The notes beneath the pieces were generated by a model that was not told the origin of the DNA, ran no database searches, and worked only from the letters and a program-made list of their open reading frames with translations. DNA of 64,000 nucleotides, from the NCBI GenBank assembly GCA_963843555.1, contig CAWJKV010000006.1, forward strand, positions 1 to 64,000. Direction: 5' to 3'. The stretch comes from an uncultured Methanosarcinales archaeon. Its GTDB lineage: Archaea > Halobacteriota > Methanosarcinia > Methanotrichales > Methanotrichaceae. A program made the position numbers and the translations under genes. Of this stretch, positions 1 to 6,053 are shown one piece after another. Positions within the stretch are counted from its first letter, which is position 1. Each line of letters starts with the position of its first letter.

Positions 1-2163
<2,163 letters not shown>

Positions 2164-2204
2164 AAACTCGGGCGAAATCTGGTCGCAAAGCTAAAGCATG
2201 ATAA

Positions 2205-2267
2205 CCAAGTATCCCTGGACTTACGAGTCTGGGGAGGCATAAAACCGGTTCGATTCCGGAACTTGGA
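2205..2267 (+). other. tRNA-like element in the 23S-5S spacer (candidate 5S 5'-end processing signal)
   Basis: CCAAGT (2205-2210) pairs with ACTTGG (2261-2266). Internal hairpin TCCCTGGAC/GTCTGGGGA and T-arm CCGG-TTCGATT-CCGG lie just before the 5S start. Confidence 0.6.
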
Positions 2268-2270
2268 ATC

Positions 2271-2398
2271 GAGCATGGCGGCCAGAGCGGCAGGGAAACT
2301 CCTGAACCCTTTCCGAACTCAGAAGATAAGCCTGCCCACGTTCTGCACTGTACTCAGATGCGCGAGCTCTCGGGAACTGTAGATCGCTGCCATGCTCA
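2271..2398 (+). rRNA. rrf: 5S rRNA
   Basis: Terminal helix GAGCATGGC/GCCATGCTC, conserved CCGAAC loop, ~125 nt long, ~110 nt downstream of 23S. Confidence 0.95.
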
Positions 2399-2765
2399 CC
2401 TAATTTATTTTGGCAAGGAGTTTATTTTATCAATCATTGGAACCCGTAAATTACTGGATTTATTATATTCCACTTAGCCATGCTGCACGGTCGATCGGGA
2501 CTACTATGCGCCCGAAAAGGCCAAGCTGCAGATCGCTGCCATGCTCACCTAACCTTTATTTTGTATCTTTACCTGGAGCTAGGGCTCCCTAATTACTATT
2601 ATCTTAATCTGACTTAGCCATGCTGCACGGATGACGGTTTCCGTTTAACGATGCTGCATGGTCAATGGGGCTACTATGCGCCCGAAAAGGCCACAAGCCG
2701 GAGAGCTGCCGGGCTCGCCTAACAACATTTATATTACTTCAGCTGGATTCGGGCTCCTTAATTGC
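2381..2765 (+). repeat. Degenerate tandem repeat (about 2.4 units of 150-170 bp), each unit starting with the 5S rRNA 3' end
   Basis: AGATCGCTGCCATGCTCACCTAA is exact at 2381-2403 and 2530-2552, degenerate at ~2701-2722. ACTTAGCCATGCTGCACGG occurs at 2472 and 2612. CTACTATGCGCCCGAAAAGGCCA occurs at 2501 and 2671. Confidence 0.9.
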
Positions 2766-2851
2766 CGCGTCCAATTCGTTTATGATCTCATAATAGTGGC
2801 AAATGGCCTCTACATTCTCCATGTTACCGATTTTCTTGAATATCATCTTTT

Positions 2852-3613
2852 CTATCCCTTCTTTATCTCAGCCAGATCATTTATAATTTCTACGTACTGC
2901 CGGACCAGGGATTTACTCATCTCCAGCTCAGAAGCTATATTCTCCGCTGGAATCCCATCGCCATGAAGCTTTAGAACCTTTTTGTATCCCTTGATGTACC
3001 GATCGCATGCTTCTTCGCTATGGGAGGTCCTCCGCGCGATCTCAGGAGTTGGGACGTTCCTAACAAACTGCTGAATGATTATCTTCTTGTGAGTCAGTGT
3101 CGGACCGATATCATGAATAGTCCCACGGTACGGCAGGATAACGCCTCGCTCCAGTTGGAATTCTCTGATGTCCTTGCCGATAGTGCCTGCACTCACTCCA
3201 ATCAAGAGACTCACATCTGCTTGGTTCAGGACTCCATCCTGCTCATATGCTTCACGGAGTATCCTAGCCACCTTGCACTTTCGGATCTCTTTAGCAGAGT
3301 AACCATCAAGCCTCAGCTTCAGGTCATCCTGACTAGCGATGGACAAAATTACGGGAACCATCTTGGTGTTCTCGATGGTCTTATTCCGGCCGGGATATTC
3401 GTCTTTATGTGCCGCCCACCATACAACCTGACCGGCATCAAGCTTCCATCCGTCTTTTAGATGCCTGTTGAACTCTTCAAGCAGGTCTCTGATGAACATA
3501 TCCTGGATTTTGTCACCTCCAAGAAACTTGTATTCCTGGTTAAGCATCTGCTTCACGGAGTTGGCGAACCCTTTGTACTTTCGGAGCATTCGCTCTGCAT
3601 TTGAATCTTTCAT
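2852..3613 (-). CDS. DUF1670 family protein (HTH-rich), copy B
   Basis: Motifs EAYEQDGVLNQAD, RGTIHDIGPTLTHK, TSHSEEACDRY. Start placed at the ATG overlapping the upstream stop (ATGA), preceded by GGAGTGA; the ORF track starts at TTG 3643. Confidence 0.85.
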   Translation of the reverse strand: MKDSNAERMLRKYKGFANSVKQMLNQEYKFLGGDKIQDMFIRDLLEEFNRHLKDGWKLDAGQVVWWAAHKDEYPGRNKTIENTKMVPVILSIASQDDLKLRLDGYSAKEIRKCKVARILREAYEQDGVLNQADVSLLIGVSAGTIGKDIREFQLERGVILPYRGTIHDIGPTLTHKKIIIQQFVRNVPTPEIARRTSHSEEACDRYIKGYKKVLKLHGDGIPAENIASELEMSKSLVRQYVEIINDLAEIKKG

Positions 3614-4446
3614 GAGTTCATCACTCCGTTGCTTTCTTGCCAAGGTATTGAGCTTTTTTTCAAGGGCAATGGCTCAGCAAGAATCTGCTGAAGCCTGATT
3701 TGGGATTCTGGATGATCTTTGCACGTCTCGTAAAGATCCAGATATTCCTTAACGAGCCTCTCGGACATGTCAGTCAGTTCGCGTATTTCAGGCAAGGAAT
3801 ATCCACGACAGTGGAATCGAACTGATTTAGCGAAGCCCACAAGATACCTTTGAACAGAGAAGCCGGAATGGCCTGTCTTGCGCTCGATGTCTGTGTATTC
3901 GTAACCTTCGAGCCACATCTTCACTACTTTCGATTTGTGTGTTACTCCTGGACCAATATCTTGAAGTGTTCCGCGGGTAGGAACATCGATATCCTGTTGT
4001 TTCAACTCCTTGACATCACGTCGGATCGTTCTTCTGGAGCTGCAGAGAAGGACCGCCAGATCCTCTTGTGTCAGAAGACCGCCTTGATCCAAGGCCTCGC
4101 TTGACATGCGAAGAATTTTATGCTTTCGCAAACCGGAAGTGCCTTTCTCGGTTAGGATGTTCATATCATTTCTATCATGAAACGTTAGATGGACCGGGAC
4201 TGATTTAATCTCCGAGAGCCTTTTTCCAGGAGGCTCTGACGCAGAGGCAGCATAGAAGGTTATCTGACCTTCATGAAGCTTCTCACCAAAGGTTTCATTG
4301 AGAAAATCCCACATCAGATTTACCAGGGATCGGCAGGTAGCTTTCGGGAAGCTATAATCTGCTTCAAGTGTTTGGAACAACCTTTGCTGAGCACTCCTCA
4401 CCCAGGGGCCTTTGTAAACCAAATCAGTCTCATCTACTTGTACCAT
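3610..4446 (-). CDS. DUF1670 family protein, copy A
   Basis: Motifs EALDQGGLLTQEDLA, RGTLQDIGPGVTHK, TGHSGFSVQRY; paralogous to copy B. ATG 4446 is preceded by GGTGGGA. Confidence 0.85.
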   Translation of the reverse strand: MVQVDETDLVYKGPWVRSAQQRLFQTLEADYSFPKATCRSLVNLMWDFLNETFGEKLHEGQITFYAASASEPPGKRLSEIKSVPVHLTFHDRNDMNILTEKGTSGLRKHKILRMSSEALDQGGLLTQEDLAVLLCSSRRTIRRDVKELKQQDIDVPTRGTLQDIGPGVTHKSKVVKMWLEGYEYTDIERKTGHSGFSVQRYLVGFAKSVRFHCRGYSLPEIRELTDMSERLVKEYLDLYETCKDHPESQIRLQQILAEPLPLKKSSIPWQESNGVMNS

Positions 4447-4672
4447 CTGTCCCACCAATGCTTGAATTTGCACGCGAAGATACTTTAATGTAGGGGACAC
4501 TTGGACGGATAGTAATTCGTCCCGTTTTATGGCAATTAAAAGTTGGCCTGTCTCCTGATTCTACCGCTCCACCTGGGATAAATTGAAAAACAATTCCTCA
4601 GTCCTCTTTTCGACCTTGCATGAGGTTTATAAAGTATGAAAACCAAATTCAGGCGATAGAGTGGTGATGGGA

Positions 4673-5716
4673 ATGAAATGCAACAGAATTTTGCTATATA
4701 TGATAACTCTCGCAGCATGCCTGCTGATTGGGATTTCGTCTGGTCAGGACTATTTGAATTATGGAAATGTCAGTTACGGCCGTACAGATGATCCCGGCCT
4801 CGCTGGCATGTTGCAGTGGCTCGATCAACCAGTCTACAACTACCCCTGGTACACTACAGGCGGTTCCTTCTACAGCCAACCATATAGCGACACGACATTC
4901 TCGCCTTACAGGGAATACTATACAACCGCAGGTACGACTGTAACCGGTGGGATAGTGAGCAATCCTACCAAGTTTGATATTACACAGAAAACCCCTTCCA
5001 GTGTGTACTACGGTGCCGGCGTTGGCCTGCCATACTCCCAGTATGCATCCCTATTATCATCCAAGACCAATGACCTCTGGATTCAGGGCACAACAAACTG
5101 GACACAATACGCAGTAGTCCCGGTGGGCACCTGGTTGCAGCTGATAGCCTACACGCCGGTTGGAGGGGCAGCGGGCTTCTATGAGGTAGACCAGACCGAC
5201 ACAACCATCTCGAAGTACATGACCTATCAGTTCAACCCTGGCTATAACACCATGAACTACCAGGCCGCTCAGGTGGGAAGGCATATGCTCTACTTTGTAG
5301 TGAACAACCAGCCCAGCAATGTGGTCGTCGTGGATACATTCGCCCAGGCTGCGACAAGTTCAGGAGTGAGCACTTATCGAGCAGGGACCCAGAAGCCGGT
5401 TAATGTTTTAGGCAGTGGAACGAATTCGGGGAGCTTCGTCACGGGCAGAAGATCATACCTGACCCCAACCGGCTATACCCCGGCTGGCTATAACCCAACC
5501 GGCTATACCACTACAACCACTCCCGATGGCCAGATCGTTACCACATCCGACGGCAAGACCACTATCACGCCCATCGGTAAGACCACCACAGTCTCCGATG
5601 GAACTTACACAACAACAATAGGCCCTGATGGCACTCAGACGACGAGAACTCCCGGCGGAACCACTGTCACATCCGGAGACGGCCAGGTGACAACGACGAG
5701 TTCCAATTGGAGCTGA
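4673..5716 (+). CDS. Secreted/surface protein with a Tyr-rich N-domain and Thr/Gly-rich repeat tail
   Basis: Signal peptide MKCNRILLYMITLAACLLIGISSG; TATA-like TTTATAAA at 4626-4633; C-terminal PTGY and TTTxxDG repeats. Confidence 0.8.
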   Translation: MKCNRILLYMITLAACLLIGISSGQDYLNYGNVSYGRTDDPGLAGMLQWLDQPVYNYPWYTTGGSFYSQPYSDTTFSPYREYYTTAGTTVTGGIVSNPTKFDITQKTPSSVYYGAGVGLPYSQYASLLSSKTNDLWIQGTTNWTQYAVVPVGTWLQLIAYTPVGGAAGFYEVDQTDTTISKYMTYQFNPGYNTMNYQAAQVGRHMLYFVVNNQPSNVVVVDTFAQAATSSGVSTYRAGTQKPVNVLGSGTNSGSFVTGRRSYLTPTGYTPAGYNPTGYTTTTTPDGQIVTTSDGKTTITPIGKTTTVSDGTYTTTIGPDGTQTTRTPGGTTVTSGDGQVTTTSSNWS

Positions 5717-6000: not shown

Positions 6001-6053
6001 GGCCGACTCGCGGAATCCCGGAAGAATGTGCGAATGTTGTTTCTGCAAGCATC
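6001..6053 (-). repeat. Dispersed intergenic repeat, copy 1
   Basis: The reverse complement matches 62935-62987 at 47 of 53 nt (manual alignment). Confidence 0.8.

Follow-up and report, generated by a model that had tools for sequence, protein, structure and literature searches.

The window, a 64,000-nt stretch of contig CAWJKV010000006.1 (assembly GCA_963843555.1) from an uncultured Methanosarcinales archaeon, contains close to its rRNA genes a compact element with two overlapping genes of the DUF1670 family (Pfam PF07900). This element is a real and recently mobile insertion sequence, a conclusion that is strongly supported. Because it is multi-copy, patchily distributed, present at about 70 sites, and matched by exact empty alleles, it is not a single-copy, syntenic gene pair lacking empty sites, and the original prediction of a mobile element at this locus, made from the DNA letters and open reading frames (ORFs), stands in that part. 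We put the probability at about 0.7 that the insertion sequence is autonomous and that the DUF1670 pair is its own recombinase, with a fold that is built of helix-turn-helix (HTH) units and lies outside the catalogued transposase classes. That the two proteins are the mobilizing enzyme is indicated only indirectly, by the absence of any other gene, by purifying selection, and by ends that change along with the proteins. The known transposases of prokaryotes rely on domains of the DDE, DEDD, HUH, serine, or tyrosine-recombinase type; this is an insertion sequence of an undescribed family with a probable new enzyme class, set apart from those classes by profile and with a presumed enzyme activity. 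The element and its parts are as follows.

2792-4515, minus strand: DUF1670 insertion sequence, 1724 bp including the base shared at both ends (net insertion 1723 bp), defined by copy comparison and empty sites
4504-4515, minus strand: upstream terminal extension, with the shared T at 4515, an element-derived T at 4514, then 10 bases to the repeat
4487-4503, minus strand: upstream subterminal inverted repeat, 17 bp
4446-3610, minus strand: orfA, DUF1670 "first" clade, 278 amino acids (aa), PF07900 E value 6e-69
3973-3975, 3937-3939, 3868-3870, and 3844-3846, minus strand: candidate active residues R158, H170, H193, and Y201 of orfA, equivalent to R163, H175, H198, and Y206 of orfB
3613-2852, minus strand: orfB, DUF1670 "second" clade, 253 aa, PF07900 E value 4e-78
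2800-2816, minus strand: downstream subterminal inverted repeat, 17 bp, matching the upstream repeat at 14 of 17 positions
2792-2799, minus strand: downstream terminal extension, 6 bases (CCACTA), then an element-derived T at 2793 and the shared T at 2792

Copies, ends, and insertion footprint

Further copies with the same ends were found in this genome, in four other genomes of the genus, and in metagenomes. The second full copy (contig C9, positions 1525-3248) is 99% identical to that of the window, with 15 differences and unrelated flanks; the 14 coding differences are all synonymous. Contig C2 holds a 244-bp remnant of the downstream end, again with unrelated flanks, and genome-wide the element end sequences match only these three copies. 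Genomes G024, G030, G027, and G001 carry copies of 82 to 93% identity that end at the same two bases, 4515 and 2792. PF07900 is patchy: 17 of 61 relatives have it, as do 27 of 301 genomes of the phylum, mostly in pairs and often decayed. A metagenome scan with a 28-base end motif returned 83 stretches with 72 different 25-base flanks, which correspond to about 70 insertion sites because two of the flanks look like one site and one is uninformative; a single metagenome contains eight different sites carrying identical 95-nt ends. All 33 end-to-end matches are at least 1724 bp long and 28 are exactly 1724 bp, with no miniature or internally deleted derivative among them.

Two sites that are filled in metagenome contigs are empty in genome G005, and comparison on both sides shows flanks that are 97 to 100% identical. 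At both, the net insertion is 1723 bp with neither duplication nor loss of target DNA. The entry point at the second site is one T only, so neither TT nor TTT can have been duplicated, and we rejected both as target duplications. For the site occupied in the window itself, the searches yielded no empty allele.

The position of the crossover follows from junctions with flanks of at least 92% identity. The first T of the TTT is element-derived in all three informative downstream junctions (L066, L082, and L085), and the third is element-derived in all three informative upstream junctions (L053, L055/L085, and L087); the middle T is shared between the element and its target, and the crossover falls there. 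Two repeated sites with TTT in the target are also consistent with a middle-T crossover. Several metagenome contigs look chimera-like, pairing flanks of two sites (L082, L088, L066, and L052), and L036 and L079 share one flank; we read these as assembly chimeras and took the two sides of their junctions separately. TT terminates each of the 79 distinct upstream junctions, a feature that the query itself required of the metagenome matches, which are most of them, and all 14 true downstream ends continue with TT, having been found without that requirement; sequencing run X2 also shows a loose end at 2792. In every case the inserted DNA represents a permutation of a single, fixed end junction, with 6 bases, TTT, and 10 bases between the inverted repeats.

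The target is degenerate and AT-rich, with the consensus B-w-W-W-T and usually T as the next base. The two bases before the shared T are A or T in 78 and 79 of 79 flanks; two positions further out, A occurs in only 2 of 79. On the right side of the crossover, position +1 is T in 20 of 29 flanks, and positions +5 and +6 are A or T in 23 and 25 of 29, against a background of 64%. Homology between donor and target on this side, hinted at by 22 flanks, vanished with 29. Specific targeting of rRNA operons was also rejected, since only 1 of 79 upstream flanks matches an rRNA region, in addition to the window itself and L002. Insertions are mostly intergenic, because a 150-codon frame reaches the junction in only 12 of 57 upstream 600-nt flanks, compared with 926 of 2,000 random positions. 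One insertion in G030 sits within a member of a small palindromic repeat family (see below), L002 and L068 adjoin post-5S repeats, and at one locus different subfamilies are inserted about 90 bases apart (L003/L155 in G001, contig C65, and L006 in G027, contig C59). In L004 (G030, contig C35, positions 3130-3342), the first 212 bases of the element run directly into a full copy, with the joint at an internal T-run, an arrangement that probably arose by self-insertion followed by deletion.

Followed along the gene strand, the element begins with TT and 10 bases, continues with one 17-bp repeat, the two genes, and the second repeat in inverted orientation, and closes with 6 bases and TT; joining the ends gives repeat-6-TTT-10-repeat. 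The 6/3/10 spacing is kept in the subfamilies of L159, L150, L147, and L145, despite differing repeats and proteins of only 36 to 55% identity, the A proteins being 36 to 50% identical to that of the window. The repeats of these subfamilies have a CA(A/T)ATG core in common. L145 has another triplet in place of the central TTT, and L144 and L148 retain the 6-base side. A base change at 4500, within the conserved CAAATG core, is confined to the window copy (1 of 16 distinct full elements). In the subfamily of L158, L133, and L157, the short and long terminal extensions look swapped relative to gene direction, and the copies share flanking bases, suggesting a specific target.

These ends differ from those first proposed. 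The boundaries had been set at 2758 and 4539, where copy comparison gives 2792/2793 and 4515, and the nested inverted repeats taken as ends include a 9-bp pair (2758-2766 and 4531-4539) that is host DNA, 26 and 16 bases outside the element; the C9 flanks differ there. The 7-bp direct repeat (at 2773 and 4514) lies across the true junction and does not represent duplicated target DNA, and the third post-5S repeat, at whose break the segment was said to start, stops at 2763, with the element beginning 29 bases further on. The real end features are the 17-bp subterminal repeats, which the original prediction did not include. At the upstream junction (4503-4522), the host flank and element end together form an 8-bp palindrome with a 4-base centre; this target happens to mirror the element end.

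The DUF1670 pair

As predicted, two coupled genes fill about 1.6 kb: orfA and orfB overlap by ATGA at 3610-3613 and jointly span 1,595 bp, both belong to PF07900, and the element holds no other gene, and hence no other mobility gene. An upstream GTG start was rejected because it depends on a base change unique to the window copy. The two proteins are 33% identical over 189 aa. Both frames are intact in all 16 distinct full copies, and nonsynonymous change (dN) is far below synonymous change (dS); dN/dS is mostly 0.02 to 0.08 (for orfA about 0.03 to 0.08, against diverged copies, and for orfB about 0.02 to 0.06), from which we judge that both genes are under purifying selection.

The residues predicted to be shared by the two proteins, R158, H170, H193, and Y201 in A and their equivalents in B (with 8 residues from His to Tyr), are conserved across the family. 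A set of 92 diverse members shows no variation at R158 or G165 and 97 to 99% conservation of R113, Q121, H170, H193, and Y201. In 17 gene pairs, the first and second genes form two old clades (1 change, compared with a shuffled mean of 11.6) with similar branching (support of 95 in a quick tree). All 17 first genes and 12 of the 17 second genes keep R158; H170 is present in 34 of 34, and Y201 is missing only from two truncated rows. The fusions include 12 degenerate domains, for which the alignment is less sure; in these, R113 and Q121 persist (12 and 11 of 12), and R158, H170, H193, and Y201 are retained in only 1, 2, 0, and 1. Three-domain fusions of degenerate, A-like, and B-like parts (P0127, P0128, P0129, and P0134) are 930 to 952 aa long, on contigs of about 3.0 to 3.5 kb where checked, and P0154 and P0168 are A-B fusions. 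Gene coupling, the two clades, and the natural fusions suggest that A and B may act as a heterodimer; prediction of an A+B complex scored 0.02, which gives no answer and counts neither way.

Profile and structure searches place the proteins among DNA-binding folds. There was no match of A or B to PF00589 or to a DEDD transposase in Pfam or NCBIfam at E 0.1, nor to DDE or HUH families in the profile searches; the resolvase HTH family PF02796 matched weakly (E 0.032), with the serine recombinase catalytic domain absent from the matches. The AlphaFold model of OrfA (predicted local distance difference test, 87.9; predicted template modeling score, 0.62) consists of N-terminal helices, a β-hairpin, a winged helix (approximately residues 94-164), and two more HTH units. 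In structure comparisons it most resembles winged-helix regulators (Z 6.4; root-mean-square deviation [rmsd], 1.9; 56 aligned), although Z values of such HTH matches may reflect only common arrangements. Fold searches with the OrfA model and with residues 130-216 gave no tyrosine recombinase, DDE, HUH, or DEDD catalytic domain among the matches listed, which does not count against such a domain, residues 1-95 being barely covered. Sequence searches of the Protein Data Bank returned only HTH proteins, and an Atlas search excluding DUF1670 gave only weak HTH clusters (at most 0.81).

The family extends over archaea and many bacterial phyla and comprises 1,168 clusters at 50% identity. The genome-collection scan gave a single locus. 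No relatives were confirmed on viral contigs, plasmids, or phages.

Proposed mechanism and alternative explanations

A probable route for insertion is that A and B bind the two inverted repeats and, once bound, join the ends to give a 1,723-bp circle, whose TTT junction would recombine with a target T by break-and-rejoin chemistry. The conserved Tyr (Y201/Y206), aided by R158, H170, and H193, is a tentative candidate for the nucleophile. A is the likelier catalytic subunit, because every A retains the complete set of residues and the Arg is missing from some B proteins. The symmetry axis of the repeats, by arithmetic from their positions, lies about 2 bases to the right of the crossover, the only one seen, which would fit a single strand exchange followed by replicative resolution; this step is suggested more weakly, by analogy with integron integrases, for which one exchange plus replication can work (PMC4792948). 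The enzyme type has probably not been described before, because insertion occurs at AT-rich sites without copying of host DNA and with only two DNA-binding proteins to hand. The chances are about even that DUF1670 as a whole is an HTH-only class of transposases or recombinases, with a composite Arg/His/His/Tyr site formed by two paralogues, scarless circle insertion at a single shared T, and subfamilies ranging from near-random AT-rich to exact single-site targeting.

Several observations weigh against the DUF1670 pair as the element's own recombinase. No circle junction was found in any locus or in the genome, and contigs of four sequencing runs, which contain at most a 0.15 share of the flank, show neither a joint across the element nor a circle. 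Tyrosine recombinases have a 6- to 8-bp overlap region between staggered cuts, and since donor-like bases show no preference at target positions +2 to +4 among 29 flanks, a staggered overlap is not evident here. The spacing of L160 and the long side of L148 deviate from 6/3/10. For A and B, all matches in Pfam, NCBIfam, and PHROGs are to DUF1670 or to families of HTH type, and residues 130-216, with H170, H193, and Y201, match sigma-region-4/NarL-type HTH domains (Z 7.6; rmsd, 1.6; 49 aligned), in which the Tyr may be a packing residue, to judge from LuxR-type alignments. The joint loss of residues in degenerate domains could equally reflect lost DNA binding. Two copies in G307 (L145 and L146), one base apart over 1,603 bp, share an orfA frameshift, so an intact A in cis may not be needed; these copies may have moved in trans or be recoded.

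The main rival is that the pair only binds and pairs the ends and that a host or unlinked enzyme, such as a Xer-type recombinase, a topoisomerase, or an IS110-type transposase, does the cutting. We regard this as unlikely, although both predicted models are HTH chains, the frameshifted G307 copies would fit, integrase-family and IS110-family genes occur elsewhere in the genome (3 and 2 matches), and the asymmetric subterminal repeats resemble IS1111 ends (PMC11187229). Because DUF1670 spans archaea and many bacterial phyla, however, such a helper would need to be present universally. No repeat motif like that of the element occurs at either IS110 locus, and the genome, which is 82% complete, contains no partner bearing these ends. 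The degenerate targets are unlike dif-type sites, and an invariant Arg/His/His/Tyr set at about 30% identity would exceed what HTH binding usually needs.

The DUF1670 pair as the element's own recombinase includes a stricter version, differing on ancestry, in which DUF1670 is a true but highly divergent tyrosine recombinase derived from the C-terminal half of an integrase, with H170 as the box II Arg, H193 as the LGH His, and Y201 as the nucleophile. HHalign against 21 integrases of the same class places A136-202 on integrase residues 93-154, the box II region, in a register that pairs H170 with the Arg of box II and H193 with the His of LGH and sets Y201 beside the Tyr. The score of 28.0 exceeds all 100 block shuffles (at most 25.8), with a pairwise E of about 1e-3 and a probability of only 17 to 29%. 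From H170 to Y201 there are 31 residues, compared with 32 from Arg to Tyr in the integrase alignment and about 30 in tyrosine recombinases (PMC3414803). In DUF1670, His replaces Arg, and His to Tyr is 8, against the usual 9 from His/Trp to Tyr. The footprint without target duplication also fits. HxxR, predicted to be noncanonical, occurs nowhere in either protein, and the corresponding H118 and R121 are invariant in the integrase alignment; PF00589 gives no match, and a local hidden Markov model from 25 integrases had a best E of 0.059 against 272 DUF1670 proteins, which is not significant. The nearest structural neighbours of the matched segment are, moreover, ordinary HTH domains. We therefore consider strict membership improbable. 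The resemblance to integrase box II is real but weak, and suggests that DUF1670 may work like a tyrosine recombinase, not that it belongs to that family. The tyrosine-recombinase-like label of the original prediction thus survives in the footprint and in the R/H/H/Y residues, conserved and lost together, and not in HxxR, family match, or profile probability; tandem HTHs without an R/H/Y cluster were the contrary expectation, and the AlphaFold models bear out its HTH half.

An alternative within the same DUF1670-recombinase explanation is that the enzyme uses metal-dependent His/Asp chemistry (E117, D129, D163, H170, and H193) for direct strand transfer, with no covalent Tyr. The conservation of D94 and D129 (96%), E117 (89%), and D163 (85%) is in keeping with this, as is the retention of D163 in only 3 of 12 degenerate domains. 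Direct strand transfer, as by DDE enzymes, normally leaves a target duplication, though, and none is seen here; D129 also sits in the winged-helix core, and this chemistry seems rather unlikely. RNA-guided insertion, as with the bridge or seek RNAs of IS110/IS1111, is very improbable: the ends are IS1111-like and there is no duplication (PMC11187229), but only 69 and 60 bases at the two ends are noncoding, Rfam has no match within the element, and the target is degenerate.

Related systems, host setting, and meaning

The IS1111 group of the IS110 family is closest in end architecture, with subterminal inverted repeats, unequal extensions, and no target duplication. According to PMC11187229, IS1111 elements have repeats of 11 to 13 bp with 7/3 extensions, a DEDD enzyme, a guide RNA, and a circle that has been demonstrated. 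The DUF1670 element differs in its 17-bp repeats, its 6/10 extensions around TTT, a circle that is only proposed, two paralogous genes in place of a DEDD transposase, no long noncoding region, and a degenerate target (about 70 AT-rich sites). In target use the closest system is IS607; PMC6188088 describes serine transposons with a GG core, minimal target specificity, no duplication, and no inverted repeats. The DUF1670 element also has a very short shared core and no duplication, but the core is a single T at one site and not a dinucleotide, inverted repeats are present, and there is no serine recombinase domain. RIT trios are closest in gene layout, being tyrosine recombinase elements with overlapping paralogous genes (PMC3414803). 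As in tyrosine recombinase elements more broadly (Xer/integrase, RIT, and integron), there is a C-terminal Tyr about 30 residues past a conserved basic or His residue, overlapping paralogous genes come in twos or threes, and insertion is conservative; unlike them, the DUF1670 pair lacks HxxR and a PF00589 match, is modelled as an HTH chain, and crosses over where element and target have only a single base in common.

Classical DDE insertion sequences are similar in size, compact coding, inverted repeats, and use of many AT-rich sites, but the DUF1670 repeats are not terminal, there is no target duplication, and no DDE family matches. HUH transposons (IS200/IS605 and IS91) have an HUH domain and subterminal hairpins; for the DUF1670 element no HUH family matches, and the folding of its ends does not surpass that of shuffled sequences (z 0.19 and -0.41).

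The host DNA around the element includes the following features.

2377-2763, plus strand: degenerate post-5S repeats, downstream of the 5S rRNA gene
2758-2766, no strand: 9-bp inverted repeat arm on the host side, partner 4531-4539, outside the aligned copies

The window begins inside an archaeal 23S rRNA gene (1-2163), which is followed by the 5S rRNA gene (2274-2395); the organism is presumably a Methanothrix-like methanogen. The post-5S repeats are about 125 to 170 bp each, and every one reuses the 3' end of 5S; they have no Rfam match and are possibly decayed 5S copies or processed small RNAs. Further repeats of this type occur at G000:C7:70237-70446 and at locus L159, and similar ones are present in 27 of 58 other genomes of the genus. 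The 9-bp inverted repeat may be a hairpin because it is more than local chance would give (5 of 1,000 shuffles of 60-nt flanks). A gene for a secreted Thr/Gly-rich protein of 351 aa (4661-5716), with several paralogues in the genome, starts 145 bases from the element end and is read away from it. An abundant family of small palindromic repeats, resembling miniature inverted-repeat transposable elements, is represented at 6008 and 62980 and has 31 motif matches genome-wide.

We found no description of DUF1670 or PF07900 in the literature searched; supplements, subscription papers, ISfinder, and TnCentral lie outside this comparison. Pfam assigns the family no function, and here both proteins, which are full members, are tied to defined ends and empty sites. 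The contribution of this locus lies in its exact empty sites, at which nothing is duplicated, in its relaxed choice of target, in an end geometry that is conserved, and in putting the tyrosine-recombinase idea directly to the test. A mobile element that is now annotated as hypothetical proteins or transcription regulators can be recognized for what it is. The element is well suited to experiments: it is only 1.7 kb long, encodes just two small proteins, has precisely defined ends, is undemanding in its target, and apparently inserts without leaving a trace. In methanogens it would serve for mutagenesis or delivery. That an insertion sequence so active and widespread fits no known transposase profile suggests new chemistry for breaking and joining DNA, and a large family that lacks annotation would thereby gain a function.

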